A stretch of 64,000 nt of DNA from an uncultured Gammaproteobacteria bacterium (GCA_964416445.1 CAYQEE010000008.1:6450-70449), one strand, 5' to 3'; counted from the stretch's first letter, positions 6,983-43,212 are shown. Numbers and translations are program-made. Notes: generated from the sequence alone by a model not told the origin.

Positions 6983-6987
6983 TATAT

Positions 6988-18853: not shown

Positions 18854-19418
18854 GGAGTGTTTGATGGATATATTTTTTTCGCATCATTTTCTGATATTCA
18901 TTCTCTGAAATGAGTGTTTGGTTTGTATCAACTCGATCGAGAAAAACAAGACCATGAATATGATCATATTCATGTTGGAAAATACGAGCAATGAATCCGT
19001 CTAGAGTCTTCTCGAATTTTTTTCCTGACCGAGAGGTATACCTAATTTGTAGCGAAGTAAAACGAGGTACCAGCCCTCGAATACCAGGTACGCTTAGACA
19101 TCCTTCCCACTCATAAACTTTTTTTTCAGATGAAGATTGTATATGTGGGTTAATCATTGCCAATGGTCTCATGAGGGGTGCGTGAGGATATCGAGGATTT
19201 GGTTTCGATGCAATAATGAATACTTGCAAAGAGCTGAATACTTGTGGTGCAGCAATCCCAACACCATCAACTTCTTGAACCGTGGCAATCATATCATCGA
19301 TGAGTTGTTGAACTTGTACATTTTTCACTTGAACGATTGGTTTTGTTTTTTCTCTCAGAATGGGATTGCCCAATTGAGCAATTTGTCGAAATACAATGCG
19401 CGGCATATAAACTGTCAC
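18840..19418 (-). CDS. def: peptide deformylase
   Basis: GIAAPQV, EGCLSVPG and QHEYDHIHG, the three PDF motifs. Confidence 0.9.
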   Translation of the reverse strand: MTVYMPRIVFRQIAQLGNPILREKTKPIVQVKNVQVQQLIDDMIATVQEVDGVGIAAPQVFSSLQVFIIASKPNPRYPHAPLMRPLAMINPHIQSSSEKKVYEWEGCLSVPGIRGLVPRFTSLQIRYTSRSGKKFEKTLDGFIARIFQHEYDHIHGLVFLDRVDTNQTLISENEYQKMMRKKYIHQTLHEKQ

Positions 19419-19464
19419 TTAGTGTACCCGTTTTCAAAAAATTGTCAATAAAAAGAAATCATTG

Positions 19465-20385
19465 TTAATTTTGAATCGTTACGCAAGCAGTACCAATATC
19501 TGATCCATTTGCGCTATTATCACCATCATGAACTGTATAAACTGCTAAGTAACTATGTCCGGTGGTTAACCCAAGATTGTTGACGCTGTAAACCACCTCT
19601 GAACCATAGTCACAAATATTACCTGAACAAACGACATTTCCTTCTGCAGGAAACTGATCTGCACCTGTTGGAAGTTGACTTTGATTTTTCGGCTGCGGAT
19701 CTCCTCCGATATTATAATCTTTCCATGTTCCGTAGACAGCGTCAGGGACATGGGGATTTCCTGCATGAACAGCATCAATTGGTTGTCCATTTGGATTAAG
19801 CGTTAAATCGAGTAAAAATAAGGAAGGGAATACATAAAAACCTGCTGGATCTTTAATAGTAGTATCTCCTACACCAACCCCTGGTTGTGATGGAAAAACA
19901 GAATCGACTGGGTGAGTCTTCATTTGAGGTGTTGTTGTTCCCGCTCCCAGTGTCATTGCGTGTTCATCATGATACCAAAATTCTATTTTCCCCCCAGCTG
20001 AAACAGATTGTCCCGAAGGAGGATAAACGGCAAAAACATTCTCAGTTTCTCGTTTTACTCCGAGTTGTTGCAAGAGAGTAGTTATACCAGTTCCACAATT
20101 GAAAGGAACAGTAGTAGGAGAAGGTGAAAGGCTAGATGTTGGCGTTGGAGGAATAGAAATAAATGAAAGCGTTTTTAATTGCAGTGTTGCATGCGAAGGA
20201 TCAGCGGTTGGTGTGACAAGTACATATTTTGTTCCATCATAGGGTGGATTTACTGAATTAATAAATCCTGTTGCTAAGAGAAAAGCAAAGAGTGCAATAC
20301 CTATCAGTACAAATGTTATATATCCCTTATTTGTTTCAATGGATTTTCTTTTTCGAGACATTTTTTTTGTTTTTTGTTTTCTCAT
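19465..20385 (-). CDS. membrane-anchored secreted hypothetical protein
   Basis: Lys/Arg-rich N-terminus then a TM helix (ITFVLIGIALFAFLLA). The rest is extracellular with S/T/P-rich segments. Start placed at an internal Met (ORF extends to 20508). Confidence 0.5.
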   Translation of the reverse strand: MRKQKTKKMSRKRKSIETNKGYITFVLIGIALFAFLLATGFINSVNPPYDGTKYVLVTPTADPSHATLQLKTLSFISIPPTPTSSLSPSPTTVPFNCGTGITTLLQQLGVKRETENVFAVYPPSGQSVSAGGKIEFWYHDEHAMTLGAGTTTPQMKTHPVDSVFPSQPGVGVGDTTIKDPAGFYVFPSLFLLDLTLNPNGQPIDAVHAGNPHVPDAVYGTWKDYNIGGDPQPKNQSQLPTGADQFPAEGNVVCSGNICDYGSEVVYSVNNLGLTTGHSYLAVYTVHDGDNSANGSDIGTACVTIQN

Positions 20386-20472
20386 TACTCTTATGGTAAA
20401 GAAAAGAAGACCTACTTGTAAAGAGGGCCGAATTACCATAAGATAAATATAAATAGCAATAGAAATTAGTCT

Positions 20473-20775
20473 ATGACGCCAACACCCTGCCCACCGAATT
20501 CGACACAAACGGATTTTGGCTGTATACCAAATGATCCGGGAGGTTTTACGTCCAAATTTTATGGTATTGGTTTGGGATTAGTTGCCGCTGCATCACTTCT
20601 TTTTATTCTTTATGGTGGTTATTTAATCATTACTTCACAAGGTAATCCAACACAATTTAATCGAGGGAAAGGGTATGTCTTTTATTCAATCATGGGCCTT
20701 CTTTTTGCTGTTCTTGCAGCTGTTTTTTTCCAATTAGTCGTTGTCGATTTTTTACATATCCCAGGATTTAAATAA
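20473..20775 (+). CDS. small two-helix membrane protein, VirB2/TrbC-pilin-like
   Basis: 100 aa. Cys-containing N-terminal segment, two hydrophobic helices (GLGLVAAASLLFILYGGYLII and MGLLFAVLAAVFFQLVVV) separated by a short polar loop. Stop is directly followed by the ATG of the next gene. Confidence 0.55.
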   Translation: MTPTPCPPNSTQTDFGCIPNDPGGFTSKFYGIGLGLVAAASLLFILYGGYLIITSQGNPTQFNRGKGYVFYSIMGLLFAVLAAVFFQLVVVDFLHIPGFK

Positions 20776-23700
20776 ATGAAAAGAATCTGCCTATTAGTTT
20801 TAATGGTTCTTCTGCTCTTCTTTGGAATATCATTGCATTTCTCTGTTCAGCATTCCTATGCTCAAACACCAACTCCAACAATGGATCCTAATATTGCTGA
20901 TGGTGATTGGTTGCCTGATGCAGATGTTACCTTTCAAGGAAAGACAGCTTCCCGTTCTGCATTGCTGTTAAATCTTGTTCTGAAAAATTATCAATGGGCA
21001 ACCATTGGAGGAGAACAATCATTAATTATTTTCTGGACAAATATTAGAAATGTCGTTTACGCGATTTTACTGCTCGTACTTCTTGCAGCAGCCTTTGCCA
21101 TTATTATTAGCGGAGGAAAAAGTCTTACTGCATGGACCTTCGCGCGAAGGTTTATCATCATGGTTATTTTAATATGGTTTTCGTTTGCGTTAACACGTTT
21201 TCTGTATGAAGTAATTGATATTATTATTGGTTTTTTCAACAGGAATCCTCAAGGAGTTATTATTACCTCAAAAGATCTCTTCAATATGTCGTTTAATTAC
21301 CAAGGGTTTATTGGTCTTCGAAGATTTGGACCCTCATATGACGAATCTGCATTCGTTTCTTTATTGCTTGTGCGACTTACCGCAATTACCTATTATGTTA
21401 TGTCCGGAATTTTACTTGTAAGAAAAATTATCTTATGGTTCTTTATCGCGGTATCACCTATTTATCCATTGCTCTTATTCCATTTTCCTATTCGTAATAC
21501 GGCAAAGATATGGATAGGTGAATTTTTTCGATGGTTACTCTATGCGCCATTATTCTTCATTTTTCTTTCATCCTTAGTTGTTGTATGGCAACATAATATT
21601 GATATTTTTCCATTTCAGTACATACAAAATCAAATTGTTTATCCCACTGCAATTAATATTCTCCTTGGTGGTCCTGGACAACAATTAACTGTTGATAATA
21701 GTGTAAATTACAATGATACCTTTGCCGAGTATGTCATTGCATTGATCATGTTATGGATTGTTATTTTTCTTCCATTTATTCTTCTGCGAATCTTTTTAGA
21801 TTATCTTTGGAGCTTAAATCTTGACAAAGATAATACGCTTGGTTATCTCCAAAATGTAGTGAAAAGAGTTCCCGGAAGTCAGTATATCTTTCCTAATTCA
21901 CCTCTGCCACCAGGAAAATATCCTCCTGGACCACCTCCAGGAACCCATCCCACAGGGATGGCAAAACCAATTTTGTATGGTACAACTGGTCTTGCTCGTG
22001 AATTACCAACTGCAGCAGCGTTAAGCGAACACAAATCTACCGTTAAGGAAATAGCAAAACCAACACAAACACATACTTCAGTAGTGAATAATGTGTATAA
22101 TAACGTGACGACACAAACTCCTGCCTTTAAGTCAGAAAAAACGAGTGTCGAAACAGCAAAATTGGTTAATTTCCCCATTCCTCGAATGCGAGATATTGCC
22201 CATCTTGAAACCAATCGGTCTAGTTCACAAATAACAAAACAGCAACAAATTAGTCGAATGCATGAAACCCTCGAAAAAATTGCAAATCCTCAAAGTATTA
22301 CCAATACAGTAGAGCGGCAACAATTTACTCAACTTCGAGATAAATTACTGCAACAAAGTCAAAAAGGTGAACCATTAGCGACTTCAATATTGAAAGCAGC
22401 AAATACAGTAACGAATCAATCAACCAAATCAGTTATTACGCAATCGACACATGAGACAGTTACCCAGATCCAGCAGATGATCCAAAAAATCAATAATCCT
22501 GAAATCGTAACCGATAATTCACAAAGACAGCAATTTACCGTATTGAAGAACAAACTCGCGCAAGCAAGTAAACAAGGAGACCAATATGCAACAACAGTCA
22601 TGAATATGAAGAGTGAGTCTCAAGTTCAACAAACAATTCAAAAGCTTTCAGCACCACAAACTATTACCAATGCAGTTGAACGTGAGCAATTTACAAAACT
22701 TAAAGCACAATTAATTGAAAAAAGTAAACAGGGAGATACTGTTGCGACGTCTCTTCTTGCTGCTTCAGAAACAGTTGCAAAAGCAAACGAGAGTACGCTT
22801 CCTCAAGCAAATCAAGTGCAAACGGTTAATCTTGAAGATTATGAAGAAGTGAAGAAGACTTGGTTGGAAAACTACAAGAAAATGGAAATTCCTAATACAG
22901 CGGAAAATAAAACAAGAAAAGATTGGATTCAAAAAGACTTACAAAAGATGACAGAAACGATTGACTTATTAAATTCACAAGATCAACAAAAAGTAAGTCA
23001 AGGAATGCAGGAAGTATCACAGTTATTACCATTCTTACTTATTGGTGGTTTCTCACAAACTGAAGTGGTTGCTTATTTACAAGCCAAGAAACATGCAGCA
23101 GAAGAAGCACTGACTCAAATAAAAGATTCTGATAACGAGGAAGACACTATGGTTGATGCAACAAAGAGAGAAGCACATGCAACAAAACATATGCAAGCAT
23201 CGGTAGTGAATACTGCAGATTTTTCGTCAAATAGTGACGATGAATCTGATGAAAATCCACTTTCTAATATTTTACAGGGCTATTCACAAAGAATTCAAAC
23301 AATAAAGAAAGAAGCGCCAAAATTAAAATCCGAACAAACGAGTCAAAAAACATTGAAGCTCCTCAATTTTTCAATACCAACCATTTCAGATATCGCTCGG
23401 TATGAAAGCGCTCCTATTACTGCACAACAAAATGTCCAACAAGAAATGACCCAAGTAAATGAAATGTTGAAGAATCTTGCTTTCCCTGAATCTATCCCTC
23501 AAGAAGATCAAAAACAACAGTTTATTCTCATGAAACAACAATTAGTTGAGTCTGCCCAGAAAGGTGATCCTCTTGCGAACGCAATATTATTTTCAGTCAA
23601 TACCATTTCTCAAACAAACATCATGGCTCAGTCGAATCAGCAATATACTCAGGCAATGAATTCTTTGTTACAAACAATTCAGAAGTTTATTAATCCAAAA

Positions 23701-24483
23701 ATAAGTGCGCAAGATGCTGAAGAAAAACAATTCATGCAAATGAAACAAACAATTACGAATGAAGCTGCGCAAGGAAATCCTTATGCCGCATTTGTTATCA
23801 ATATTGCGGATAAAGTTTCTCAAACGACTCCTGAAAACCAAGGTCAAGTTTCAAATACCGTGCAAGAGTTACTTCTTAATATCTCCAATCCTATGAATAA
23901 TACAAATACTGATCAACAACAATACTATACCCAAATTAAACAGGAATTAGAAAAAAGAAATGCAGCAGGGGATCCCGTAGCAAATGCAATAATGCTAGTC
24001 CTGCCACATATCATACCGACAAAATCAGTCTTACCTCAAACCAATGATGTTCAAACAGTCAATTTAGATGATTATGAAGCGGTACGGAGTATGTGGCATG
24101 ATATTTATAAATCGTCAGAAGTGCCTGCTATCTCTGCAAATCCAAAACCAACAAGACAAGAATGGATTCGAGAAGATATGAAGCACCTTTCAGAAACAAT
24201 GGCCATGTTAAAATCCGAAGACTCAGAAAAAATAGCATTAGGCATGCAACAAGTTGGTAGCTTATTACCATTCTTACTTATTGGTGGTTTCTCACAAAGT
24301 GAAATTGTTGCTTACTTGCAAGCAAAGCAACAAGCAGGAGCAGATGTCTTACAAGAATTATCAGAAAAAGAGGCAGAAGAAGATTCACAAGTAACACTGA
24401 CTGCAAAAAAGAATGAAACCGTATTGAGCCAAGCCCAATCAGAACAACTACCAGAGCAAGAAAGTGAAAAGCATGAGAACTAA
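20776..24483 (+). CDS. large polytopic membrane protein (signal peptide plus about 6 TM, VirB6/TrbL-like topology) with repeat-rich cytoplasmic C-terminal domain
   Basis: 1235 aa. Signal peptide, about six TM helices between aa 90 and 340, Pro-rich segment (PLPPGKYPPGPPPG), then two tandem copies of a roughly 360 aa unit built from about 50 aa repeats. Confidence 0.7.
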   Translation: MKRICLLVLMVLLLFFGISLHFSVQHSYAQTPTPTMDPNIADGDWLPDADVTFQGKTASRSALLLNLVLKNYQWATIGGEQSLIIFWTNIRNVVYAILLLVLLAAAFAIIISGGKSLTAWTFARRFIIMVILIWFSFALTRFLYEVIDIIIGFFNRNPQGVIITSKDLFNMSFNYQGFIGLRRFGPSYDESAFVSLLLVRLTAITYYVMSGILLVRKIILWFFIAVSPIYPLLLFHFPIRNTAKIWIGEFFRWLLYAPLFFIFLSSLVVVWQHNIDIFPFQYIQNQIVYPTAINILLGGPGQQLTVDNSVNYNDTFAEYVIALIMLWIVIFLPFILLRIFLDYLWSLNLDKDNTLGYLQNVVKRVPGSQYIFPNSPLPPGKYPPGPPPGTHPTGMAKPILYGTTGLARELPTAAALSEHKSTVKEIAKPTQTHTSVVNNVYNNVTTQTPAFKSEKTSVETAKLVNFPIPRMRDIAHLETNRSSSQITKQQQISRMHETLEKIANPQSITNTVERQQFTQLRDKLLQQSQKGEPLATSILKAANTVTNQSTKSVITQSTHETVTQIQQMIQKINNPEIVTDNSQRQQFTVLKNKLAQASKQGDQYATTVMNMKSESQVQQTIQKLSAPQTITNAVEREQFTKLKAQLIEKSKQGDTVATSLLAASETVAKANESTLPQANQVQTVNLEDYEEVKKTWLENYKKMEIPNTAENKTRKDWIQKDLQKMTETIDLLNSQDQQKVSQGMQEVSQLLPFLLIGGFSQTEVVAYLQAKKHAAEEALTQIKDSDNEEDTMVDATKREAHATKHMQASVVNTADFSSNSDDESDENPLSNILQGYSQRIQTIKKEAPKLKSEQTSQKTLKLLNFSIPTISDIARYESAPITAQQNVQQEMTQVNEMLKNLAFPESIPQEDQKQQFILMKQQLVESAQKGDPLANAILFSVNTISQTNIMAQSNQQYTQAMNSLLQTIQKFINPKISAQDAEEKQFMQMKQTITNEAAQGNPYAAFVINIADKVSQTTPENQGQVSNTVQELLLNISNPMNNTNTDQQQYYTQIKQELEKRNAAGDPVANAIMLVLPHIIPTKSVLPQTNDVQTVNLDDYEAVRSMWHDIYKSSEVPAISANPKPTRQEWIREDMKHLSETMAMLKSEDSEKIALGMQQVGSLLPFLLIGGFSQSEIVAYLQAKQQAGADVLQELSEKEAEEDSQVTLTAKKNETVLSQAQSEQLPEQESEKHEN
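22123..24393 (+). repeat. Protein-level tandem duplication inside the 20776-24483 CDS: two units, each with an intro segment, three roughly 50 aa repeats and a roughly 120 aa module
   Basis: Unit A about 22123-23175, unit B about 23317-24393. Intro segments TSVETAKLVNFPIPRMRDIAHLE and TSQKTLKLLNFSIPTISDIARYE. Six repeats of consensus L.K(I/L).NP..IT...E..QF..LK..L....KQGD..A...L. The 120 aa modules share QTVNL(E/D)DYE...LLPFLLIGGFSQ(T/S)E(V/I)VAYLQAK. Confidence 0.75.
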
Positions 24484-24504
24484 TATCTTTTCGGAAAGTA
24501 GTTC

Positions 24505-24534
24505 TTGACGTTATTGTTGCACTAAAGCGATAAT
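24505..24534 (+). promoter_or_regulatory. candidate promoter for the Clp-like ATPase gene
   Basis: TTGACG, 17-18 nt spacer, GATAAT, in the 68-nt gap after the membrane-protein gene. Confidence 0.35.
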
Positions 24535-24551
24535 GATATAATATAACTAAT

Positions 24552-27500
24552 ATGTTTAGCGGTTTTTTTAATAATAAAAGACATGAGGATCAGGATTATC
24601 AACAAGTTCCTGTTTATACTGGACAACCGCAACCTATTTCGCCAACAAATCAACCGCAACAACCACAAAGCTCTGGAATTGGATCAACAATGCAACCAGC
24701 AATGCGTGAAGAAGTTACGGCACTCTCTCACTTAGATCCTCGCGCTGTTGAAGTCCTCAATGTTGCGCAGCAAGAAACTTCTCGAATAAAGCAAGCATTT
24801 ATTGAACCAGACCAACTGCTCTTTGCATTACTCTTTGATAAAGATATTTTTAAATTACTTGAACAATTTAATTTAAAAGTTGCTGATGTCTCGAGAGAAA
24901 TTCAAGAGAAAGAGAAAATAGGTACTTTTTTAGGACAACCAACGCTTTCCCAAGATACCAAAAAAATATTTGGGCAGGCATATGGATTAGTAAAAACTCG
25001 AAGTGCTGAATTTATTACTCCAGAAGACTTGCTTATTTCTCTCATGGACGCGAATGTTCCCGCTTCAGCGATGTTGCAAGCGCAAGGACTTGGAAAAGAG
25101 AAAATAGAGGAAAAACTCAATAAATCAGGGAGTACCTATACTGTTGTTAAAAAATCATTTCTAGATAAATTTGGTATCGATTTGACCGAAGCAGCTCGAT
25201 CTGGTGCGCTTGATCCGGTGAGTGAACGAGATAAAGAAGTAGAACGAGTCATTCATATTCTTTTACGAAGAATTAAAAATAATCCGATAATTATTGGAGA
25301 AGCGGGAGTGGGTAAAACTGCTATTGTTGAGGGGCTTGCGCAAATGATCGTACAAGGAAGAGTTCCGGAAGATTTAAAAAACAAACGAATTATTCAAATT
25401 GATGTGGCCTCATTAGTTGCAGGAGCATCGCACCGAGGTGAATTTGAAGACCGTTTGCGAAGTGTTATTAAAGAAGCACAAGCATCTTCTGGTCAAGTCA
25501 TTATTTTTATTGATGAAATACATACCTTAATGGGAACCGGTGATTCAGATGGTGCTCTTGATGCTTCAAATATTATAAAACCATTTCTTGCTCGAGGTCA
25601 GTTGCAGATTATTGGAAGCACAACTACAATAGAGTATCGTCATTATTTTGAAAAAGATAAAGCATTTGCTCGACGGTTTCAAACAGTACTTTGCGAAGAA
25701 CCATCAGAAGAGTCTGCTATTAAAATGATTGATATTTTGAAAGCAAAATATGAAAGATTTCATAAGGTTACATTAACCTCAGAAGCAATTGCAGCAGCAG
25801 TTAAACTCTCGAAAAGGTATATCGGAGAACGGTATCTTCCCGATAAAGCAGTTGATGTTATTGATGAAGCAGCGGCTGATGTGAAGCTTCGTAATAATAC
25901 AGGCAATCAAAAAGGAAATGAAGTGCGAAAAGAAGACATTGATAAAGTTATTAGTAATTGGACTGGAATTCCCGTATCAAAATTGACTGAGAATGAAAGT
26001 GAAAAATTGCTTCATTTAGAGGATATTATTCACAAGCGAATGATAGATCAAGAAAGAGCCGTTAAGTCTGTTGCAGAAGCAGTACGAAGAGGAAGAATTG
26101 GTCTTGCAAATGTCATGAGACCAATTGCATCATTTATTTTCCTTGGACCATCGGGAACGGGAAAAACAGAACTCGCAAAGACTCTTGCTGAAATTCTTTT
26201 TGGTAAAGAGGATGCAATGATCCGTTTGGATATGAGTGAATATATGGAAAAGCATGAAGTGGCAAAATTAATTGGTGCACCTCCAGGATATGTTGGTTAC
26301 GAAGAAGGAGGACAGTTAACGGAAGCGGTACGTATGAAACCATATTCTGTCGTTCTCCTTGATGAAGTAGAAAAAGCTCATCCCGATGTCTTTAATATTT
26401 TATTACAGTTATTGGAAGACGGGAGACTTACGGATAATAAAGGGAATACGATCTCATTTAAAAATACCATTATTATTTGTACTTCAAATATTGGTAGTGC
26501 ATTAATTCAACAATATTTGCAATCTGATATCAGTGCGAAAACAGTTTCTCAAGATACGGCAAGTGATAGCGTAACAAAAAGAGAACAACAAGGTGATTCA
26601 AATGAAAAAAAGGCTCTTGATCCAAATCAAGCACAGAAACCTATCCAAGATAAAGAAGCAAAACAAAAAGAATTGCAGCAATTAGTAAGTGGTGAATTAC
26701 ATAAATTTTTTAGACCGGAGCTTATCAATCGTTTTGATGAGGTTATTATTTTTGAGCCGCTCGGAAGAGAAGTTATGGTAGATATAACAAAATTGCGTAT
26801 TCAGTCTACCCGAAAATTACTTCTTGAGCAAAATATTGATATAGAACTTACTCAGAAAGCGCTTGAAGAACTTGCACAAGAAGGCTATGATCCTGCGTAT
26901 GGAGCTCGGCCACTTCGTCGTTTGGTCCAATCAACTATCGAAACTCCGATTGCCAGTCTTATCTTAGGGAAAAAGTTTGTTGCAGGAGATACGATTGCAA
27001 TTGATTATGATGCAAAAGAGGAAAAATTTGTCTTTACTAAATCGAATAAACCTGCAGGATCGGTTGCTGGAGCACAAGCTCAAGAAGAATTTCCTGTGCT
27101 TCGGGCTGTTTTACGAAAACTTGCTAATCCAAATGTGATTACCGATATGACAGAACATGGTCAGTATTTAGCGTTACGTCAGACAATGGATCAAGCAAGC
27201 AAACAGGGAGATATGTATGCTACCTGGCTATTGAATATTGCGAGTTCTCTTGTACAGACTGAACAAACGAATCCTGCACAGGCAGTGTTAGATCTTAAAG
27301 GAGTGCTCCAAAAATTACTGAATCCTTCGAGCCTTCTTGACCCGAATGAATATCAACAATATGTTACCTATAAAGATCGGTTAACACAGGAAAAAGCAAA
27401 AGGTGATATGCTTGCGAGCGCAATGCTCGATAGTTTACTTTTGGTTGTTTCTCAGCAACCTGCACCGCAACCTATGCAACCGGTTTCGCAACAGCAGGTT

Positions 27501-27725
27501 CAACCCCCCGTCATGCCTGTACAGCCAGTACAAGCGAAAGCACAATATAATCCTCAAACAGAATCAATTGTTAGTCCATTAATTCCCATACAGCAGCCTG
27601 CTGCACCACAACAACCTTCTTCTCCAACACAAAGCTATGCAGATTTATTAGCACAATTTACTCGGAATACTATTCCGCAACCAACTCCTAATATAAATGG
27701 AAGCCAACCTGCACTTTCAAAGTAA
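24552..27725 (+). CDS. ClpA-like Hsp100 AAA+ ATPase with non-canonical C-terminal repeat tail
   Basis: 1057 aa. Q/P-rich leader, double Clp_N repeat, AAA1 ([27 protein letters not shown]), AAA2 ([24 protein letters not shown]). No M-domain between DEAAADV and WTGIPVSKL. No I/L-G-F/L ClpP loop. Roughly 225 aa C-terminal tail. Confidence 0.85.
27090..27449 (+). repeat. Two copies of the same roughly 50 aa repeat family found in the upstream membrane protein, inside the Clp-like CDS tail
   Basis: [52 protein letters not shown] and [48 protein letters not shown] align with repeats such as LEKIANPQSITNTVERQQFTQLRDKLLQQSQKGEPLATSILKAANTV. Confidence 0.75.
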
Positions 27726-27772
27726 TTGTATTTGTTAACTTAACCCTTTGCCTCGCGGTACTCTTTCTATTT

Positions 27773-27985
27773 TTAATAGCCTTGATTGCCAAGGTTTCTA
27801 ATAAGGAGATTATAATCAATACCATTGACAACACCGTCATCATTGATATCTGCAAAGAGTCCTTTTGTTTGATCTGAGAGATTGTGTGCTTTACATGAAG
27901 AACTTGTTGTTTTCATTCCGTAACAATCAACAAGGATATTATAATCAGCTAAATCAACACTGTTGTCATTATTGATATCACCCAT
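27773..27985 (-). other. dockerin domain coding segment (C-terminus of the GH79-like gene)
   Basis: Two 22-residue D.N.D..V...D..L repeats in the last roughly 70 aa. Confidence 0.6.
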
Positions 27986-30163
27986 CCGAAGATTTGTCGG
28001 ATTGACGTTAGTTTTACCGGTGAGTGCAATTGTTTGCCCTAAGCGAATCGATATGAGTTGAGAGGAGAGCAGTTCACGAAGGGAACCTTCCGGAGATTTG
28101 GCTAAGACATAATATGATCCTTGGGGAATTGATGAGAGATCAATAGCATTATTGACAAACGAACCATTCGGATCAGAGGGTGAAAATGAAGCGTTTATGG
28201 TGAGTGTTTGCGTAGGTTTCTGGGTAAAGTCTAGCGAGCGATAGAAAAACAATTGTACCATTCGTTGGGGATGATGAGGATTAGGATTATTTTGTGGATC
28301 AATGCCTTCAAAATGGACAGAGAGAGTACCGATTGCTGGACCAAGCGTTGATGTTCCTGTTGGAGAAGGATTTCCAGTTGTTGTTGGTCCTGTGGTTGGA
28401 CTTTGGGTAAGCGTTGCTGTTGGGGTATCTATTGGTGTGTTTGTTGGCACCGTACTAGGGGTAGTCGTAAGTGTTGGTGTTGCTCCTGTTGTTGGAGTTA
28501 TTCCTTGCGTAATTGCTGTTGTACAAAGTTGTGCATCAGGATCACAAATACCACATGATACGCCTGATTGGTCGCAATCGCTATTTGACGTACATGCTCG
28601 TCCACAGAAATTGCTATTGGTTGGTGATACTGGTTGTGTCGGACTATTCGTTGGTTGTGGAGTATTTGTTGCATGAGGTTGTGTTGGTTGTGGAGTATTC
28701 GATATTTTTTGAGTTGGAGAAGGAGTAATGGTTGTGGTACCGTTTGTATAGGTGACTATTGCCGCACTTGCTGCAGGAACAGTAATTGAAGAATTCGCCC
28801 CAGTTACACTGACTGGTTCTATGGTAGACGGGTTCCATGATCCATCACTTGCGACCGCAGATCCGCCTAACGTAATGCCTGTTGTTGCATTGACTGATGA
28901 TGCTTGTAGGCGAATATCACTTGCATGTCCAAACGATTGTGTTGTATTAATTTGAACCGAAGCAGATTGAGAAAGGTCTTTATTAATTAAAACTACTTGA
29001 AGGTTACCATTCGTATTTCTGATCCCGTAAGCGGTAATATTGACGCCTCCTGTGGAAATTTGAATAGGCAGCATCGTACCATCTGGTGCTGCATAATGAA
29101 ACGCTAACATTCCATAATAGTTAGGTCGAGGAGTATTATTAGAATAAAATATTGAGGTAGCATCACCCGACCATCCATGCACATTCATTCCCGAGGCGCC
29201 CATTTTTGCAAGAGACATAGCATAATCTAAAAGCCAAAGTGAAACACCAAATGCGTCTCCAATATTGGCAGGTGGTACATTTGCAACAGCATTGGTCTCT
29301 CCAAGTTGATACGGTAAATTTTTCGCATGAGTTAATTGCATTCTCGGTTGAAGAGATTGAATGGTTCCTTGCATAAGACTCGGACTTAATAATTGTTGAA
29401 AAGTAGTTGAATTTGCTGTGGGATAATAATGATCTGTTCCCATAACAATTTTTGAACTTTCAGCATTGATAAAAGGAGTATAAAAATCAGAGCAACAATC
29501 GGTTCCTGCTGGACCAACTATTGGAATATTTGTTCCAGCAGCTTGAATTGCAGCCGCTACTGCTTCCCATTTAGTTTGATATTGGCTGTAACTCCATCCA
29601 TATAAGTTTGGCTCATTTCCTATTTCAATACCAATAAGTGTAGATCCTGCTGATTTTGCAACATAGGCAGCATTAGCCGCATCATTTGATGGGTTTCCGT
29701 TTTTTAAATTAACTCCCCAAATAAAACGCCAACCAACTTTTTTAAGAAGAGTAACTGTTGCATCAACCATGGCAGGAGTTTGTACAGTTCCTGACCAGGA
29801 ACAAGAGCCATTCCCTGAAGTGCTCCATGAATCTCCTTCCACAGAATCTCCACCGAATCGAAACGTTGTTGGACCTAAATTTTTAAACATATTTTCTGCT
29901 AATGTGGGATTTTGATTATCTAATACCAATTGTTCACATGGACTATCAGCTGGTTCAGAACTGACTCCAATAAAACCAGTAGGTATAACTGACCCATTAC
30001 TTGCAGGATCTACTGTGACTTGGACATTTGTGCCTGCCGCTTGTTGGTGTAAATTTTGTATATGTTGTGAAAGATAAACCGCTAAACAAATGCCTAAAGT
30101 AATGAAGCAAACTATAGCAATTGTAAGGAACCGATGGTGAATGGGAACAACTAGCGATTTCAT
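27773..30163 (-). CDS. secreted glycoside hydrolase family 79-like (beta-glucuronidase/heparanase fold) with Thr/Pro linker, Cys-rich module and C-terminal dockerin
   Basis: GIEIGNEPNLYG (acid/base NEP), DHYYP, LGETNAV (nucleophile; compare heparanase LGETSSA). C-terminal DINNDNSVDLADYNIL and ADINDDGVVNGIDYNLL are dockerin type-I Ca-binding repeats. Confidence 0.7.
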   Translation of the reverse strand: MKSLVVPIHHRFLTIAIVCFITLGICLAVYLSQHIQNLHQQAAGTNVQVTVDPASNGSVIPTGFIGVSSEPADSPCEQLVLDNQNPTLAENMFKNLGPTTFRFGGDSVEGDSWSTSGNGSCSWSGTVQTPAMVDATVTLLKKVGWRFIWGVNLKNGNPSNDAANAAYVAKSAGSTLIGIEIGNEPNLYGWSYSQYQTKWEAVAAAIQAAGTNIPIVGPAGTDCCSDFYTPFINAESSKIVMGTDHYYPTANSTTFQQLLSPSLMQGTIQSLQPRMQLTHAKNLPYQLGETNAVANVPPANIGDAFGVSLWLLDYAMSLAKMGASGMNVHGWSGDATSIFYSNNTPRPNYYGMLAFHYAAPDGTMLPIQISTGGVNITAYGIRNTNGNLQVVLINKDLSQSASVQINTTQSFGHASDIRLQASSVNATTGITLGGSAVASDGSWNPSTIEPVSVTGANSSITVPAASAAIVTYTNGTTTITPSPTQKISNTPQPTQPHATNTPQPTNSPTQPVSPTNSNFCGRACTSNSDCDQSGVSCGICDPDAQLCTTAITQGITPTTGATPTLTTTPSTVPTNTPIDTPTATLTQSPTTGPTTTGNPSPTGTSTLGPAIGTLSVHFEGIDPQNNPNPHHPQRMVQLFFYRSLDFTQKPTQTLTINASFSPSDPNGSFVNNAIDLSSIPQGSYYVLAKSPEGSLRELLSSQLISIRLGQTIALTGKTNVNPTNLRMGDINNDNSVDLADYNILVDCYGMKTTSSSCKAHNLSDQTKGLFADINDDGVVNGIDYNLLIRNLGNQGY

Positions 30164-30243: not shown

Positions 30244-31653
30244 TTATTCAAGGCAGGTGAACGGATGATCTTTATCTTGCTGGAACATTCCTGCCCATTC
30301 AACAGCGACAAATCCAGTTCGTTGAATTTTAGGCAGGATAGGGAGATCGATTGTTTGTGGGGTATTCACTGGTTGAAAATTTAAGGTGACGCGAAGAAGT
30401 GTATCAGGAGTTGGACTAATCGTTAAGGGAGAAATATCGTTCAATACTTGTTGAGGAACAAGAGAGATTATGTAGTAAGGTGAGTAAGGTAAGGCGGTTA
30501 ACCAATAGTCGCTAAATTGTTTTTGCTCATTTGCATTTAAACCAAGTTTTGGCAAGAGTGTCGAGAAGAAGTTCTTCAAATCTTTGTATGCTACATTATA
30601 CCCAGTATTTTCTTTTGGAATAAGCGAATTTGGAATTGCTGCTTCGTAGTAGAGATAATCATATTGGGTATGCTCATAGGTAATAGTTCCGTTAGGATTT
30701 CCGAGAATGTTCCATCCTGTTTGTGGATATACCGGAATTGTTGTATTCAGTTTTCCCTTTGGATTTATTTTTACATTGATTGGTTCGGAAACTTGCGGAT
30801 ATAAATAGAGAGCTGGTTTACAAAATGGCCTTGGAAATCCGACTGCTGCACCACCCTGCGTGAAATCAAAGGTATGTAATTGTAACGTCTCATGTGATGG
30901 AAAAGGAGTTATTTGTAAAATAGCATTTGATTCATTTCCTCTTTGTGGACCACCGGTTGGAGATAAATTTGGTGCTGGAGGTGTAATCGTTATGCCATTA
31001 GCTGCGAGACAATTTTTGATTGCATTGGGTACACCAGGTGTTGGATAATCTGGATCTCGAAAATAAATATCAAAACGAGAAGTGCTATTTCCATACACTT
31101 TTGCCGTAGGGTCACAGGAATTATCAGAAGGAGTATTGCCAAAAGGTTTCATACAATTGGCAACACAGACATAAATTAGCTCATCATCAGGGATTGGCAA
31201 GCATTGTTTTGTTCCACTGCTCCAATCTGCAAGTTGATCATATCCTGGTGTTCTACACTCTCCAGGACCACCAGCTAATTCTTGCGAAGTACTCATTATG
31301 ATGGGATGAGGCCCATCTGGATAAGTTGCGACTTGTCCACTATCAGCACTATGTTTAAAACATTGAAAAATAGAACTATTTGATTTCAACAAGTCATACT
31401 GAACTGGTACGTTTTTATATTGTGGATACGTTAATGAAGTAGGTGAACTAAAGGTAATTGTTTTAGTTTTAATTGGTGAACAATCTGCATTATCACAGCA
31501 AACAGCAAGAGGGTTGGGTAAAGGTGCTTTCATAAAAACATTCGTAAAGAATAGTCCACCAGCAATAAAAATACTAAAAATAACAACTGCTATAAGAATT
31601 AATCCTTCAATACTACTTGAACCTTGCTGATCAAATTGGTAAATTCTTTTCAT
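30244..31653 (-). CDS. secreted hypothetical protein, possible type IV pilin-like N-terminus
   Basis: Start placed at MKRIYQFDQQG/SSSIEGLILIAVVIFSIFIAGG (Gly then Glu at +5 then a hydrophobic helix). Remainder Cys- and Pro-rich and extracellular. The ORF extends to 31728 but that would abut the divergent gene. Confidence 0.45.
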   Translation of the reverse strand: MKRIYQFDQQGSSSIEGLILIAVVIFSIFIAGGLFFTNVFMKAPLPNPLAVCCDNADCSPIKTKTITFSSPTSLTYPQYKNVPVQYDLLKSNSSIFQCFKHSADSGQVATYPDGPHPIIMSTSQELAGGPGECRTPGYDQLADWSSGTKQCLPIPDDELIYVCVANCMKPFGNTPSDNSCDPTAKVYGNSTSRFDIYFRDPDYPTPGVPNAIKNCLAANGITITPPAPNLSPTGGPQRGNESNAILQITPFPSHETLQLHTFDFTQGGAAVGFPRPFCKPALYLYPQVSEPINVKINPKGKLNTTIPVYPQTGWNILGNPNGTITYEHTQYDYLYYEAAIPNSLIPKENTGYNVAYKDLKNFFSTLLPKLGLNANEQKQFSDYWLTALPYSPYYIISLVPQQVLNDISPLTISPTPDTLLRVTLNFQPVNTPQTIDLPILPKIQRTGFVAVEWAGMFQQDKDHPFTCLE

Positions 31654-31745
31654 AAAAATCATGAACATTTTGAAAATGTTCCTTCTTCCATAGTATCGAT
31701 CAGTTAGCAAAAATACAAGGGTATGCAATGATATACTATGGAGAC

Positions 31746-32848: not shown

Positions 32849-33436
32849 ATGAGTTATTTAATTCCTGGAAAAACGGTTTTTCGGTTTACAACAAAAGACC
32901 ATCAAGAAGCGGTAATTCGGTATCCTCGTTGGGAAGATCTTGACGCTTTACTTTCGTATATTAACGTACTTTCTGAAGAAGATATTTACCTTACTTTTTC
33001 AGGAGAGACAGTAACAAAAGAAGGAGAAATGTATTACCTTACGGAAACATTTAAATCAATCGAGCGAGGCGATATGGTAAATCTCTGTTGCTACATCAAT
33101 AATATCCTTGTTGGAACATGTACAATTTCTCGAGATGTACAATCAAGAAAAAGAAGTTATCATATCGGTATTTTTGGTATTACTGTTTCGAAACAGTTTC
33201 GTCGAAGTGGATTGGGCGAGCAACTTGCTCGGATTACAATCGCTGAAGCACAGCGCACTATTGTAGGACTGAAACTGCTTATTTTAAGTGTCTACAGTCC
33301 TAATATTGCTGCGCAAAGTTTATATAAAAAGCTGGGATTTAAAACTGCAGGAATCGTACCGAAAGGAGTATGGTATAAAGGTACTTATATAGATGAAATT
33401 AAAATGTATTTACCACTCCAAGAGTATATGTTATGA
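32849..33436 (+). CDS. GNAT family N-acetyltransferase
   Basis: FRRSGLGEQLARITIAEAQ acetyl-CoA binding motif A. 195 aa. Confidence 0.7.
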   Translation: MSYLIPGKTVFRFTTKDHQEAVIRYPRWEDLDALLSYINVLSEEDIYLTFSGETVTKEGEMYYLTETFKSIERGDMVNLCCYINNILVGTCTISRDVQSRKRSYHIGIFGITVSKQFRRSGLGEQLARITIAEAQRTIVGLKLLILSVYSPNIAAQSLYKKLGFKTAGIVPKGVWYKGTYIDEIKMYLPLQEYML

Positions 33437-34491
33437 ATACCAAACCTTCCTTATTTGAAACCTTAACTGCACATAAAGAAACAATTTTCCAATTTCTCAA
33501 ACAATATTTACATAAGGAAACAAACACATTCCGTCATGTGAATCATTGGAGTAATGATATTGAAACTCGACTTCTCACATTCCTGCAACAAGGGAAAATG
33601 ATTCGAGGTAGTCTTCTTTTCTATAGTACGCAGCTCTTTGGTGTAACTGACTCGGTAGAAAGTTTACCTGCTGCAGCAGCAATTGAACTTATTCACGCAT
33701 CATTACTGATTCATGATGATATTATGGATCGAGATTATCAACGTCGAGGAAAGCAAACTATTTTTGCACAGTATGAAACATTAGCAATGGAACAAAATTT
33801 ATCTGATTCGTTACATTTTGGAGAAAGCATGGGCATTTGTGTTGGGGATTATGCTATCTATCTTGCATATGGGTTACTTTCCCAAATGAACAAAAGTTCT
33901 CTAACACATCGAATTTCGCGTGAAATTGCTATGGTCGTACTCGCACAAATGCAAGATATAGTAAATGGATATGAGGTTATAGAACCGTCATCTGAAGCAA
34001 TCCTTCATCTCTACACATTTAAAACAGGACGGTATACGTTTGCTCTGCCATTACTTACTGCAGCATTACTTGCAGAAAAGCCGGAATTTGTGGAAGTATT
34101 GGAGAAAATTGGTGAATTACTCGGAAAAATATTCCAAATTAAAGATGACGAATTAAATTTATTTGGTGATGAACAGGTAACGGGAAAACCAACTGGTTCA
34201 GATCTTCGAGAGAATAAAAAAACATTCCATCGTCTCTTACTTCTTGAAAATGCAACCATACCTGAAAGGAAGGAAATTCTTAAGCGGCTAAATAGTAAAC
34301 AGATGAATGCGAATGATTTATCGTATCTTTACGACTTATTACATACCTATCAAATAAAAAAGGTAGTTCAAACAAAAATAGCACATATGACTCAAGAAGT
34401 GAAAACATTGATCAACGCATCCTTGCTTCCTCAATCAATAAAACAAATTCTTTTTGAACTCATTGTTTATAATGAAACGAGGGTAAAATAA
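33433..34491 (+). CDS. trans-polyprenyl diphosphate synthase (GGPP/FPP synthase family)
   Basis: First aspartate-rich motif LIHDDIMDRD and second KDDELN. 352 aa. Overlaps the upstream stop by 4 nt. Confidence 0.8.
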   Translation: MNTKPSLFETLTAHKETIFQFLKQYLHKETNTFRHVNHWSNDIETRLLTFLQQGKMIRGSLLFYSTQLFGVTDSVESLPAAAAIELIHASLLIHDDIMDRDYQRRGKQTIFAQYETLAMEQNLSDSLHFGESMGICVGDYAIYLAYGLLSQMNKSSLTHRISREIAMVVLAQMQDIVNGYEVIEPSSEAILHLYTFKTGRYTFALPLLTAALLAEKPEFVEVLEKIGELLGKIFQIKDDELNLFGDEQVTGKPTGSDLRENKKTFHRLLLLENATIPERKEILKRLNSKQMNANDLSYLYDLLHTYQIKKVVQTKIAHMTQEVKTLINASLLPQSIKQILFELIVYNETRVK

Positions 34492-35240
34492 TGATAAAAT
34501 CTACCGTTTTTGATAAATTTCCTCAGCTGAATAGTATTGCAAAAGAGAAATTTCCAAAACATATTCTTATTATTCCTGATGGAAATGGAAGATGGGCAAA
34601 AGCACAAAATAAATTTGTTACCGTAGGTCATAAAAAAGGCGCTGAAGTAGTAGAACAATTATTAGAAGATATTTCTGAAATTCATGAAATTTCAGCAGTA
34701 ACGGTATGGGGGTTTGCAGCGGATAATTGGAAACGGAGTAGTCAGGAAGTAAAAGGATTATTATTTCTTATTAATTCTGCTGTCAAAAGAACTCTCAGTA
34801 AATTACAAGCAAGAAACGGAAGATTTATTCATTTAGGGAGAAAAGATCGATTACCAAAAGAACTTTTGAAACTTTTTGAAAATGCAGAAGAAGAAACGAA
34901 AAATAACACAGGACAAATCTTGTGTCTTGCAATTGATTTTGGTGGAGAAGATCAAAATGTTCGTATGGTTGATAAAGCCCGTTTGTTACCATCTGATATT
35001 CAGACAACTACTGACTTATTGTGGGAATTGCGTGATGGAAACGGTATTGTGAAAGCAGCAGATTTAATCATACGGACTTCAGGAGAACGACGTACATCAG
35101 ATATAGGATGGTTAAATGGTTCTTCTTCTGAATTGTATTTTATAGATAAGTTATTTCCTGACATCACCACTGAAAATATTGTTGAAGCCCTTATTGATTT
35201 TTCGCAGAGAGAAAGACGATTCGGTGGGAGAAGCAAATAG
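34491..35240 (+). CDS. uppS: undecaprenyl diphosphate synthase (cis-prenyltransferase)
   Basis: HILIIPDGNGRWA signature and a cis-IPPS C-terminus (RERRFGG). Confidence 0.9.
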   Translation: MIKSTVFDKFPQLNSIAKEKFPKHILIIPDGNGRWAKAQNKFVTVGHKKGAEVVEQLLEDISEIHEISAVTVWGFAADNWKRSSQEVKGLLFLINSAVKRTLSKLQARNGRFIHLGRKDRLPKELLKLFENAEEETKNNTGQILCLAIDFGGEDQNVRMVDKARLLPSDIQTTTDLLWELRDGNGIVKAADLIIRTSGERRTSDIGWLNGSSSELYFIDKLFPDITTENIVEALIDFSQRERRFGGRSK

Positions 35241-36456: not shown

Positions 36457-37623
36457 ATGGCAATTACGTTGCGTGACTACCATTTAGCCTCAAAAAGGAG
36501 AGGAGCTCTCGAAAAAGAACTCAATATTACCTTACCCCAAATTGGCAATTTTACTCTCGATGAGGATTATGCATCAACCCATAATTGTGAAAACATGATT
36601 GGAAGTATTCAAGTTCCTCTCGGTGTAGCAGGTCCGTTGAAAATAAAGGACAAAAACATGCAACAAGATTTCTTTTTGCCTTTAGCAACTACAGAAGGAG
36701 CACTCGTTGCATCAGTAGCAAGAGGTTGTAAAGCAATTACTGAAAGTGGTGGTACGCATGTAACAAGTAAACGGGTAGGAATAACTCGTGCACCTGTTTT
36801 TTCAGTCTCTGATATTGCACAGGCAACAGAATTTATAACATGGGTGAAAAGCCACACACAAATCATGAAAGAAATTGCTGAACAAACATCGCACCATCTT
36901 ACTTTGCTTTCCGTTCGCCCTTGGCATATAGGACAGAATGTTTTTTTACGTTTTCAATTTGATACGCATGATGCAATGGGAATGAACATGGCAACAATCG
37001 CGGTATCACGAGTGGTAACTTGGATTGAAGAGCAAACGCGAATTATGTGTAGTGCCCTGTCAGGTAATATGTGTGTTGATAAAAAACCAAATTTTCTTAA
37101 TTTTATTGAAGGACGCGGAATCCAAATATGGGCAGATGTCATCATTCCTGAATCTATTATCTCATCAGTTTTAAAAACAGATAAAAAAAGACTTGTAAAA
37201 ACGGCAAAACAAAAATTGCTCTTTGGATCAATTCTTTCTGGATCAATTGGAGCAAATGCACATGCTGCAAATGTTCTTGCAGCATTATTTCTTGCTACAG
37301 GACAAGATATAGCACACATAGCTGAATGTAGCATGGTTGTTACTGAACTCGAAGAAGTAGCTCAGGGAATGTATGCTTCCGTTTATCTTCCTGATTTAGT
37401 AATTGGAACTGTTGGTGGAGGAACAAATCTTTCGACACAAAAAGAAGCATTAACAATACTTGGTATTCACGGTGGAGATAGCGGAAAAAATGCGATACAA
37501 TTAGCTCAAGTGTTTGGTGCGGCAGTGCTTGCCGGTGAAATTTCATTACTCTCTGCTCTTGCAAGTAATCATTTAGCGTACGCACATCAACAACTTGGCC
37601 GAGGAGGGAAAACGAATACATAA
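36457..37623 (+). CDS. HMG-CoA reductase (class I-like)
   Basis: DAMGMNM motif and ENMIGSIQVPLGVAGPL (ENVIG-type) motif. 388 aa. Confidence 0.85.
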   Translation: MAITLRDYHLASKRRGALEKELNITLPQIGNFTLDEDYASTHNCENMIGSIQVPLGVAGPLKIKDKNMQQDFFLPLATTEGALVASVARGCKAITESGGTHVTSKRVGITRAPVFSVSDIAQATEFITWVKSHTQIMKEIAEQTSHHLTLLSVRPWHIGQNVFLRFQFDTHDAMGMNMATIAVSRVVTWIEEQTRIMCSALSGNMCVDKKPNFLNFIEGRGIQIWADVIIPESIISSVLKTDKKRLVKTAKQKLLFGSILSGSIGANAHAANVLAALFLATGQDIAHIAECSMVVTELEEVAQGMYASVYLPDLVIGTVGGGTNLSTQKEALTILGIHGGDSGKNAIQLAQVFGAAVLAGEISLLSALASNHLAYAHQQLGRGGKTNT

Positions 37624-37627
37624 TTTT

Positions 37628-38668
37628 ATGACTGGCATTGTTGGATATGGGGCATATATTCCCCGATATCGGTTATCGTTATCAGATATTGCGGATATCT
37701 GGCAAAAAGATCCAAATGAAGTAATTCATGGTCTTCATGTGAAGGAAAAAGCAGTTCCAGCTTCCGATGAGGATGCAGTAACATTAGGTATTGAAGCAGG
37801 AAAACGATCGTTTACTATGGCAGGTATTTCCCCTGAATCAGTAGGAAGTGTTTTTTTTGGATCAGAAAGTCATCCCTATGCTGTCAATCCCTCGTCGACT
37901 ATTGTCGCTGAGTTTTTAGGTATTGGTCATCATTATTTTGCGGCTGATCTTGAATTTGCCTGTAAGGCGGCAACAGCAGGCCTGCAAGTGACTGTAGGCT
38001 TATTGGATAGTAATAAAATTAACTACGGGCTTGTCATTGGAAGTGACACTGCTCAAGGAAAGCCACATGACGCATTAGAATATACCGCAGCAAGTGCAGC
38101 TGTTGCAATGCTTTTGAGTAATAAATCGGAAGAAGTTCTTGCAAAGATACTTGAAATGTCTTCATATACTTCTGACACGCCAGATTTTTGGAGAAGAGAT
38201 GGTGCACGATATCCTTCACATTTCGGGAGGTTTACTGGAGAGCCTGCGTATTTTACTCACGTCATTAATGAAGGAAGAAAGCTTTTAGAACAAAGTCAAT
38301 TGCAACCACAAGATTTTACCTATTGTGTTTTTCATATGCCAAATGGAAAATTTCCTCGTATAGCAGCCAAAAAGTTAGGTTTTACACCGGAACAATTAGC
38401 ACCATCACTTACCGTTGATAAAATTGGTAATCCTTATTCTGCTTCAGCGATGCTTGGATTGGCAGCAGTTCTTGATATTGCAAAACCAGGAGAAAAAATA
38501 TTCTTTGTTTCCTATGGATCAGGTGCCGGTTCAGATGGTTTTATTTTTCAGACTACCGAACATATTACGAAAAAACAAATAATTGGTACGAATGTGCAAC
38601 AACAAATTGAACAGAAACAATATATAACGTACGCGCAATATCTTAAATATACGCATACAATTGGATAA
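37628..38668 (+). CDS. HMG-CoA synthase, archaeal type
   Basis: MTGIVGYGAYIPRYRL N-terminus typical of archaeal HMGCS. Thiolase-fold Cys region. Immediately followed by thiolase and DUF35 genes. Confidence 0.8.
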   Translation: MTGIVGYGAYIPRYRLSLSDIADIWQKDPNEVIHGLHVKEKAVPASDEDAVTLGIEAGKRSFTMAGISPESVGSVFFGSESHPYAVNPSSTIVAEFLGIGHHYFAADLEFACKAATAGLQVTVGLLDSNKINYGLVIGSDTAQGKPHDALEYTAASAAVAMLLSNKSEEVLAKILEMSSYTSDTPDFWRRDGARYPSHFGRFTGEPAYFTHVINEGRKLLEQSQLQPQDFTYCVFHMPNGKFPRIAAKKLGFTPEQLAPSLTVDKIGNPYSASAMLGLAAVLDIAKPGEKIFFVSYGSGAGSDGFIFQTTEHITKKQIIGTNVQQQIEQKQYITYAQYLKYTHTIG

Positions 38669-38669
38669 T

Positions 38670-39824: not shown

Positions 39825-39827
39825 TTT

Positions 39828-41191: not shown

Positions 41192-41251
41192 CTTCGCGAA
41201 AATACTAAATCTGGAAATGAAATGAGAGGAGATGTTTCGTACCTTTTAAAA

Positions 41252-43099: not shown

Positions 43100-43212
43100 A
43101 TATATAGGTTTTTATTGATTAAGTCAATAAATACTTTCACGAGAAGTACGCTTATACTATATATAGTATTGACAGAGAAACGACTTGTTTGAGAGAATGA
43201 GGAAAAGTTAAC

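Follow-up and report, generated by a model that had tools for sequence, protein, structure and literature searches.

What does an Hsp100 protein do when it lacks both of the contacts by which the known Hsp100 classes are normally defined, namely ClpP through an IGF loop, or DnaK and adaptors through an M-domain? The question is raised by an open reading frame (ORF) at 24552-27725 of a 64,000-nucleotide stretch of DNA assigned to an uncultured Gammaproteobacteria bacterium (GCA_964416445.1 CAYQEE010000008.1:6450-70449; hereafter the window), whose product, here called Clp, belongs to a subfamily that has neither. An earlier sequence-only reading had described an Hsp100 without a middle domain or ClpP-docking loop, and proposed a stand-alone unfoldase with a dedicated role beside a neighbouring membrane protein. 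We put at about even chances that Clp is the dedicated AAA+ motor of an envelope machine specific to Patescibacteria, together with a VirB2-like pilin and a VirB6/TrbL-like protein encoded upstream. The relevant features of the gene are as follows.

24552-27725, plus strand: Hsp100/Clp class I AAA+ ATPase of an M-domain-less subfamily of Patescibacteria, 1057 amino acids (aa)
24552-24725, plus strand: N-terminal leader (aa 1-58), consisting of an M(F/L)GxLFxxKK-type peptide, a Q/P-rich linker and a GSTMQP...LSHLD entry into Clp_N, of which the peptide and the entry are conserved
25419-25448, plus strand: D1 pore loop, with SHR in place of the canonical KYR (AGxKYRGEFE)
25884-25958, plus strand: D1-D2 linker of 25 aa (aa 445-469), where ClpB and ClpC have the coiled-coil M-domain
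26496-26708, plus strand: AAA2 insert of 71 aa (aa 649-719) replacing the ClpP-docking loop, with many Q, K, S and D residues
27096-27455, plus strand: two VirB6-type repeats in the C-terminal tail (aa 849-903 and 914-968; hidden Markov model (HMM) domain E 1e-26 and 2e-24)
27456-27722, plus strand: P/Q-rich C-terminal tail with the short motifs QYNPxTESIVxPL and YxDLLxQF, common to Saccharimonadales relatives

Judged by its motifs, Clp is a two-ring Hsp100/Clp protein of class I with its catalytic motifs intact. Pfam recognised the domains Clp_N, AAA, AAA_lid_9, AAA_2 and ClpB_D2-small, and the closest solved structures by sequence were S. aureus ClpC (6em9, E 7e-202), which also has a similar N-domain, and T. 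thermophilus ClpB (E 1e-200); HSP101 of the Plasmodium PTEX complex was a further significant match in the PDB (E 1e-144). Walker A and B motifs were preserved in both rings (GEAGVGKT and FIDEIH in D1, GPSGTGKT and LLDEVEKA in D2), as were ARRFQ in the D1 arginine-finger region, the D2 pore loop GYVG and the sensor-2 motif GARPLRR. The earlier statement that both AAA+ modules and a double Clp_N domain are intact therefore stood for the Walker motifs and the D2 pore loop, but not for the D1 pore loop, which had lost its tyrosine; of the two Clp_N repeats, Pfam scored only the first (aa 72-119, E 7.8e-8), and the second was visible only in alignment with ClpC.

Clp fits class I yet, as far as such signatures go, fails the defining features of ClpB, ClpC, ClpA and ClpV. 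It did not pass the NCBIfam cutoffs for ClpB (TIGR03346, 880.3 bits against 1232.1), ClpA (TIGR02639, 701 against 993) or ClpV (TIGR03345, 673.6 against 884.95), and was far under those of the ClpK and ClpG models. The ClpB score was still the highest in NCBIfam and the start of the D2 loop is ClpB-like, both of which speak for a different explanation: that Clp is a general Hsp100 chaperone of reduced genomes, replacing ClpB either alone or with DnaK through a contact other than the M-domain, and that its gene position reflects only shared heat-shock regulation or inherited order. We consider this possible, if somewhat doubtful. Independence of DnaK would have precedents in the stand-alone disaggregases ClpG and ClpL; however, the M-domain, which is the DnaK docking site in ClpB and Hsp104, was absent across the family.

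This absence is clearest in the junction between the two rings. Measured from the DKAxDxxDEA motif to WTGIP, it spans 29 aa in Clp, nearly equal to the 27 aa of E. coli ClpA, which likewise has no M-domain, whereas Bacillus ClpC, with its short UVR-type, MecA-adaptor-binding M-domain, has 84 aa and E. coli ClpB, with its coiled coil, has 145 aa. The segment from DEAAADV to WTGIP was 25 aa, close to the roughly 20 aa read earlier by eye, and PDB alignments of Clp jumped over ClpB residues 397-519 and ClpC residues 424-461, which correspond to the M-domain region. The loop from TSNIG to FRPE in AAA2, by comparison, measured 71 aa (including 12 Q, 9 K, 8 S and 6 D); the equivalent is 35 aa long in Bacillus ClpC and 27 aa in both ClpA and ClpB of E. 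coli. The Clp loop contained no [ILVMF]G[FLM] tripeptide; Clp thus lacks both the IGL ClpP loop of ClpA and the [VL]GF loop of ClpC. As controls we took 77 ordinary ClpC-type genes of other phyla, in which 73 loops and 65 junctions were readable: the tripeptide was present in 70 of 73 loops, and the median junction was 84 aa (n=65). Since the same tests detected both features in the ClpC, ClpB and ClpA controls, the absences in Clp are real and not a slip of alignment. The sequence-only reading was therefore borne out on the missing middle domain and on the longer insert without IGF/LGF, neither of which had been overlooked by eye.

Overall, Clp shares with ClpB and Hsp104 two AAA+ rings, Clp_N, the D2-small domain and the lack of a ClpP-docking loop, and in sequence its D1 and D2 resemble ClpB and ClpC more than ClpA. 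It differs from ClpB and Hsp104, beyond the M-domain, in the AAA2 insert, in a disordered leader and tail, in its VirB6-type repeats and in the SHR of the D1 pore loop. Control ClpC proteins had KYR, RYR or KFR at this site wherever the motif was readable, always with an aromatic residue. With this residue lost, the D1 ring of Clp is not fully canonical, and its grip on substrate would be weakened.

All of the 120 best homologues of Clp were from Patescibacteria and, where named, were called 'ClpC'; identities were 70-75% in Saccharimonadales and ~62-66% in Levybacteria, Gottesmanbacteria and Microgenomates. On the names of the closest of these homologues we assign the window to Patescibacteria, probably Saccharimonadia. 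The junction was exactly 29 aa in 100 of the 102 homologues with both motifs, the remaining two having 46 and 70 aa, and an [ILV]GF-type tripeptide occurred in none of 119 homologue loops. The D1 pore loop read SHR in 117 and AHR in 3, so that tyrosine was replaced by histidine in 120/120, a substitution hard to reconcile with a general chaperone when every control read is aromatic; the D2 pore loop kept YVG in 120/120. Most homologues began with an M[LFI]GNLF peptide, and their C-tails were rich in P, Q and N (median 54 aa) with short recurrent motifs. The AAA2 insert, in contrast, varied in sequence and in length (33-98 aa, and 228 aa in one homologue, P0008). A further 44 unique copies, reached independently through the neighbouring membrane-protein gene, had the same traits. 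On these shared traits, Clp is a member of a distinct Hsp100 subfamily that is phylum-wide in Patescibacteria. The leader and tail had been described earlier as Q/P-rich, and their composition agrees (19 Q and 19 P in the 89 residues of the tail end, aa 969-1057), but the tail is not merely that, as it also holds two structured repeats shared with the VirB6-like gene.

The family-wide loss of the tripeptide bears directly on whether Clp could still be the ATPase of a ClpP-coupled protease, binding ClpP through the AAA2 insert or the tails instead of IGF/LGF. ClpP is present in the phylum (TM7x_02110; SEML1_0493), and the insert lies exactly at the docking-loop position. We nonetheless find this explanation very improbable, given the contrast between family and control loops, the variability of the insert, and a search of the 64-kb window and the flanks of 80 related loci that found no clpP; neither clpS nor a clpP/mecA/mcsB context was seen next to Clp. 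The contrast with the controls argues instead for the stand-alone unfoldase without a ClpP partner that had been proposed earlier. TM7x was reported with clpB (TM7x_03020) as well as clpP (TM7x_02110) (bioRxiv 10.1101/2022.03.25.485537). In S. epibionticum ML1, the one Saccharibacterium studied genetically, a non-essential ClpP (SEML1_0493) is accompanied by a UVR-bearing ClpC-type ATPase (SEML1_0512), non-essential by Tn-seq, and a Clp_N-less AAA ATPase (SEML1_0700) (PMC10633639). Where ClpP exists in the phylum, a ClpC-type partner with a UVR motif in its middle region is thus available and could serve it.

If Clp is coupled neither to ClpP nor, by the canonical route, to DnaK, its genomic neighbours are the next place to look for a partner. 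Immediately upstream are the following features.

20473-20775, plus strand: VirB2-like (T4SS_pilin) small protein with two transmembrane (TM) segments, 100 aa, abutting the VirB6-like gene and highly conserved in sequence
20776-24483, plus strand: VirB6/TrbL-like polytopic membrane protein, 1235 aa, in which a signal peptide and TM bundle (aa 1-~375) are followed by a Pro-rich linker and a tandem-duplicated helical module predicted to be cytoplasmic
22255-22779, plus strand: first block of three repeats in the VirB6-like protein (repeat HMM: aa 494-548, 564-618 and 616-667)
23452-24021, plus strand: second block of three repeats in the VirB6-like protein (repeat HMM: aa 893-947, 966-1017 and 1028-1082)

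The window pilin matched Pfam PF18895 at E 4.8e-5 with 23.8 bits, just below the gathering score of 26.6, while orthologues in two related loci, L003 and L004, exceeded that score with 29.9 and 33.5 bits. The larger protein had no Pfam match even at E<=5 and no NCBIfam match; within its family, however, 25 of 46 members matched TrbL (PF04610) at E<=0.01 (best 2.5e-7), and no other Pfam family recurred. An AlphaFold2 (AF2) model of its TM domain (pLDDT 78, pTM 0.71) had as its top three Foldseek matches in the PDB chains of TrwI/VirB6 of R388 (7o3v_G, 8rtd_L and 8rtd_H) with probability 0.95-0.97, although E was only 0.02-0.25 and the TM-score 0.24-0.39, and a profile search of the PDB with the family alignment (A1) found nothing significant. 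Taken together, family profile and fold suggest that the membrane protein is VirB6/TrbL-like. Its C-terminal part carries an internal duplication (aa 444-798 against 843-1211, E 1e-83, 37% identity; window 22105-24408), each module comprising an NxSIP motif, three repeats and a conserved LLIGGFSQTE domain. The solved R388 TrwI/VirB6 chains, in contrast, have 220-270 residues, with no room for such a long repeat array.

Likeness to a type IV secretion system (T4SS) thus extends to a TrbL-matching, TrwI-like membrane protein and a PF18895-matching pilin, but not to the usual ATPases. No virB4, virD4, clpP, clpX, lon or dnaK was found within the 64-kb window, and neither it nor the annotated gene tables for related loci showed a VirB4-type family or other T4SS gene; the ATPase partner here would be an Hsp100 and not VirB4, VirB11 or VirD4.

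The closest tie between the two proteins is a repeat of ~55 aa with the consensus LxKLxNPxxITxxxExQQFxxLKxxLxxxSxQGDPxAxxxL, of which the VirB6-like protein of the window has six copies and the Clp tail two; a phmmer comparison of the two whole proteins gave E 3e-27. AF2 modelled each repeat unit as a helix pair, and a fold search with the cytoplasmic repeat module returned generic helical-repeat matches only (probability <0.2) and no recognisable PDB relative. A profile of the eight window copies found just 161 clusters among 1.84 billion representative proteins; the best 150 of these comprised 106 VirB6-like proteins with an N-terminal TM domain, 26 VirB6-like C-terminal fragments, 16 short fragments and 2 Clp proteins. 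Leaving aside the short fragments, the repeat thus appears confined, among these best 150 clusters, to the VirB6-like and Clp families. Within the VirB6-like family the array expands to as many as 25 copies (P0241, 2790 aa).

The distribution of the repeat among Clp proteins suggests more than a single event. The closest relatives of the window Clp (P0002-P0007) were without repeats; P0008 had two VirB6-type repeats inside the ClpP-loop position, which accounts for its 228-aa loop; and four others (P0055, P0092, P0108 and L165) had a C-tail array of 4-7 repeats that were orthologous position by position at 41-69% identity. Clp has therefore acquired the repeat at least three times, with one acquisition old and maintained. 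A recent duplication from the adjacent gene was ruled out for the Clp repeats, which were only 39-46% identical to their best-matching VirB6-like repeats. By analogy with the established ClpA/ClpC-ClpP and PTEX structures, on which the placement rests, both sites of insertion, the C-tail and the ClpP-loop position, would lie on the exit face of D2. A general chaperone leaves this exclusive sharing and repeated gain unexplained.

Gene order was compared in 80 metagenomic loci, 70 of them unique, fetched through the VirB6-like family, whose N-terminal domains were only 44-57% identical to that of the window. Of 60 testable loci, 58 had the pilin gene immediately before the VirB6-like gene; in the other two it overlapped the ORF call or was 2.2 kb away. 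Downstream and on the same strand, an M-domain-less Clp was found in 42 of 42 testable loci; it adjoined the VirB6-like gene in 28 and was separated from it by one gene of 1.3-1.45 kb in 14. The order pilin, VirB6-like gene, Clp was repeated in six relatives found through Clp itself (L002, L003, L004, L170, L171 and L172). A promoter and terminator scan of 19400-28200 gave counts equal to the shuffled expectation; between the triad genes there was no plus-strand terminator, and the 68 bp preceding clp contained a candidate promoter (TTGACG-18-GATAAT, 24505-24534); no tRNA or Rfam family was found in the window. The dedicated role with a neighbouring membrane protein that had been suggested earlier is in this way strongly supported by the VirB6/TrbL-like nature of the neighbour, the constant order and the exclusive repeat, from which we infer the coupling itself.

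How might such a motor work? We postulate that a Clp hexamer docks through its D2 face on the cytoplasmic domain of a VirB6-like oligomer; this face would carry the charged insert of AAA2 and the flexible C-tail, as well as the shared repeats in those lineages that have them. Substrates would be gripped mainly by the canonical D2 pore loop and then threaded. In the variant that we prefer, because the shared repeats sit at the D2 face, unfolded proteins would be pushed into a VirB6-like conduit for export, as by HSP101 in Plasmodium PTEX; alternatively, the motor might remodel or recycle the pilin/VirB6 assembly in the manner of ClpV, for example by extracting pilin from the membrane. M-domains keep ClpC in a resting state (PMC12583610). 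Their loss predicts a constitutively assembled, unrepressed ring, whose activity would have to be controlled by where it is localised or by the conserved peptide at the N-terminus.

The same synteny and shared repeat would also be expected if Clp moved no cargo and acted as an assembly or quality-control factor for the VirB6-like cytoplasmic domain or the pilin pool. A cytoplasmic region expandable to 25 repeats could need a dedicated remodeller, and ClpV offers the precedent of an Hsp100 that only recycles a component of its machine. We judge this unlikely, as a canonical D2 threading loop and a full set of ATPase motifs suggest processive translocation, though sequence data cannot separate such a factor from cargo export and it overlaps with the ClpV-like variant of the motor outlined above.

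Several points weigh against a dedicated motor. The repeat is missing from ~95% of Clp family members, in which docking would have to go through some other part of the protein, for instance the peptide at the N-terminus, the motifs of the C-tail or Clp_N. The C-terminus of the VirB6-like protein is placed in the cytoplasm only by the positive-inside pattern and the topology of A. tumefaciens VirB6, and the orientation of Clp on the membrane is ambiguous, as an extraction (dislocase) model needs the N-domain/D1 face turned towards the membrane. In S. epibionticum ML1, the essential T4SS cluster encodes PF18895 pilins together with VirB6-like proteins that have 'ARM repeat' regions at the C-terminus, yet no Clp-type gene is found within it; the two genes for Clp-type ATPases are located elsewhere and are both unlike this subfamily (PMC10633639). 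Finally, hrcA-grpE-dnaK-dnaJ preceded the pilin on the same strand in 31 of 31 unique loci with >=7.5 kb of upstream DNA (in the upstream flanks of L089-L168; also L004 1710-5921 and L170 119-4245), the gap from dnaJ to the pilin ORF often being <100 bp; a CIRCE-like inverted repeat lay further upstream.

This last arrangement is what a general chaperone under heat-shock control would lead one to expect, and the clpB of Thermus thermophilus lies within its dnaK operon. Because the triad directly follows these genes in most relatives, some cooperation with DnaK is possible, and the earlier claim that Clp is not DnaK-coupled stands for the canonical M-domain route but not for every form of cooperation. 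In the lineage of the window, on the other hand, the triad is kept without an adjacent dnaK operon (the window, L002, L003 and L172), and no CIRCE element was found in the window.

Among known systems, a dedicated Clp motor would resemble ClpV and HSP101 in its logic and not in its sequence class. ClpV/TssH, also an Hsp100, serves a single secretion machine, lacks a ClpP loop and does not depend on DnaK; it differs in that its machine is the type VI secretion system (T6SS), of which no genes were found in the window or related loci, the partners of Clp here being VirB2- and VirB6-like, and ClpV keeps a middle domain. HSP101 is a ClpB-type protein that likewise lacks a ClpP loop; seated with its D2 face on a membrane pore, it drives unfolded proteins through the pore (PDB 6e10/6e11), and it would be the closest mechanistic analogue of the export variant, the coupling of Clp being itself inferred; it is, however, eukaryotic, retains its M-domain and works with pore proteins, EXP2 and PTEX150, that are unrelated to VirB6. 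The stand-alone ClpG and ClpL have recently been recognised as extra Hsp100 classes, and both keep M-domains; we know of no fixed membrane-protein neighbourhood for these or for ClpI. The actinomycetotal ClpI is another recently recognised class, one sub-class of which lacks LGF but which, according to its description, retains an M-domain of ClpC length (PMC10149685).

More tentatively, and with rather less confidence than in a dedicated motor as such, Clp and its divergent VirB6 channel may form a bacterial counterpart of PTEX, in which an Hsp100 on a cytoplasmic repeat domain drives unfolded proteins out and an upstream DnaK possibly hands over clients. We hold this to be rather doubtful; if so, the host-directed secretion apparatus would gain its substrate-feeding ATPase and, in Microgenomatia, its 'missing' VirB6.

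Other genes recur around the triad, among them the following one of the window.

30244-31728, minus strand: N-terminally anchored, Cys-rich accessory protein of a ~460-490-aa family, 494 aa here, with no Pfam match

This protein matched the genes that intervene between the VirB6-like and Clp genes in relatives (BLASTP E 1e-54 to 1e-63), and its HMM found it in 17 further loci (14 distinct genes) as well as in L002 and L003. In ~14 relatives the orthologue is the gene that separates the VirB6-like gene from Clp; in L002, L003 and L172 it comes shortly after Clp. A gene for a secreted or surface protein usually follows Clp in relatives, encoding a cohesin, an S8 peptidase or a VWA/SdrD protein (for example L004 12580-14547, L170 12646-14379 and L171 12858-15977), and in the window a GH79C and dockerin protein is encoded behind Clp on the minus strand (27773-30163). 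These surface proteins could be clients of the machine, or their position could be coincidence. Many relatives also have a second Clp-like paralogue, clp2, 0.3-4.3 kb downstream of Clp and near nusA (L004 14952-17321, L170 14934-17174, L171 17448-19859, and many of L089-L168). This paralogue has TM helices at its N-terminus and lacks Clp_N; its D1 Walker A motif is degenerate and its D2 pore loop has no tyrosine (e.g. GATPGEGSE). It is absent from the window, and it is likewise not adjacent to the triad in L002, L003 and L172.

The remainder of the window is chromosomal core, with rpoC, rpsL, rpsG, fusA, tuf, the S10 operon, secY and rpoA. The rpsL-rpsG-fusA-tuf-rpsJ series is split (1-5734 and 46309-50077): fusA (3623-5734) and tuf (46309-47493) are ~40 kb apart, the space being filled by unrelated genes, and an ORF of 392 aa without a Pfam match (47941-49119) lies between rpsJ and rplC. 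Two adjacent genes of ATP-citrate-lyase type at 5804-8775 (Citrate_bind with ATP-grasp, and CoA-ligase with a citrate-synthase C-terminal part) would be unusual for a reduced Patescibacterial genome. A near-complete mevalonate block occupies 36457-45216, with HMG-CoA reductase, an HMG-CoA-synthase-like protein, thiolase, two GHMP kinases and diphosphomevalonate decarboxylase, and a polyprenyl synthase and UppS are encoded at 33433-35240.

Searches of the literature turned up no paper on this Clp subfamily or on its association with VirB2 and VirB6, so that a phylum-wide Hsp100 subfamily with a partner system is apparently undescribed. The combination of a 29-aa junction, an SHR loop, an absent LGF and an MLGNLF N-terminus provides a signature by which thousands of genes now called 'ClpC' could be re-annotated. 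Should Clp prove to be physically coupled to its partners, a type-IV-like envelope machine would be powered in a new way and, to our knowledge, Clp would join ClpV and HSP101 as only the third Hsp100 devoted to secretion or translocation machinery. A survey of T4SS in Patescibacteria found VirB6 scarce in Microgenomatia, which it put down to 'extreme sequence divergence', and many VirB2-like pilins far from virB4, and it mentioned no Clp or AAA+ partner (PMC12102498). The present VirB6-like family may fill part of this gap, and may explain the apparent scarcity of VirB6 in Microgenomatia. As Patescibacteria are host-dependent and T4SS-like genes are essential in one tested system, a dedicated unfoldase would offer a handle on protein export in these organisms.

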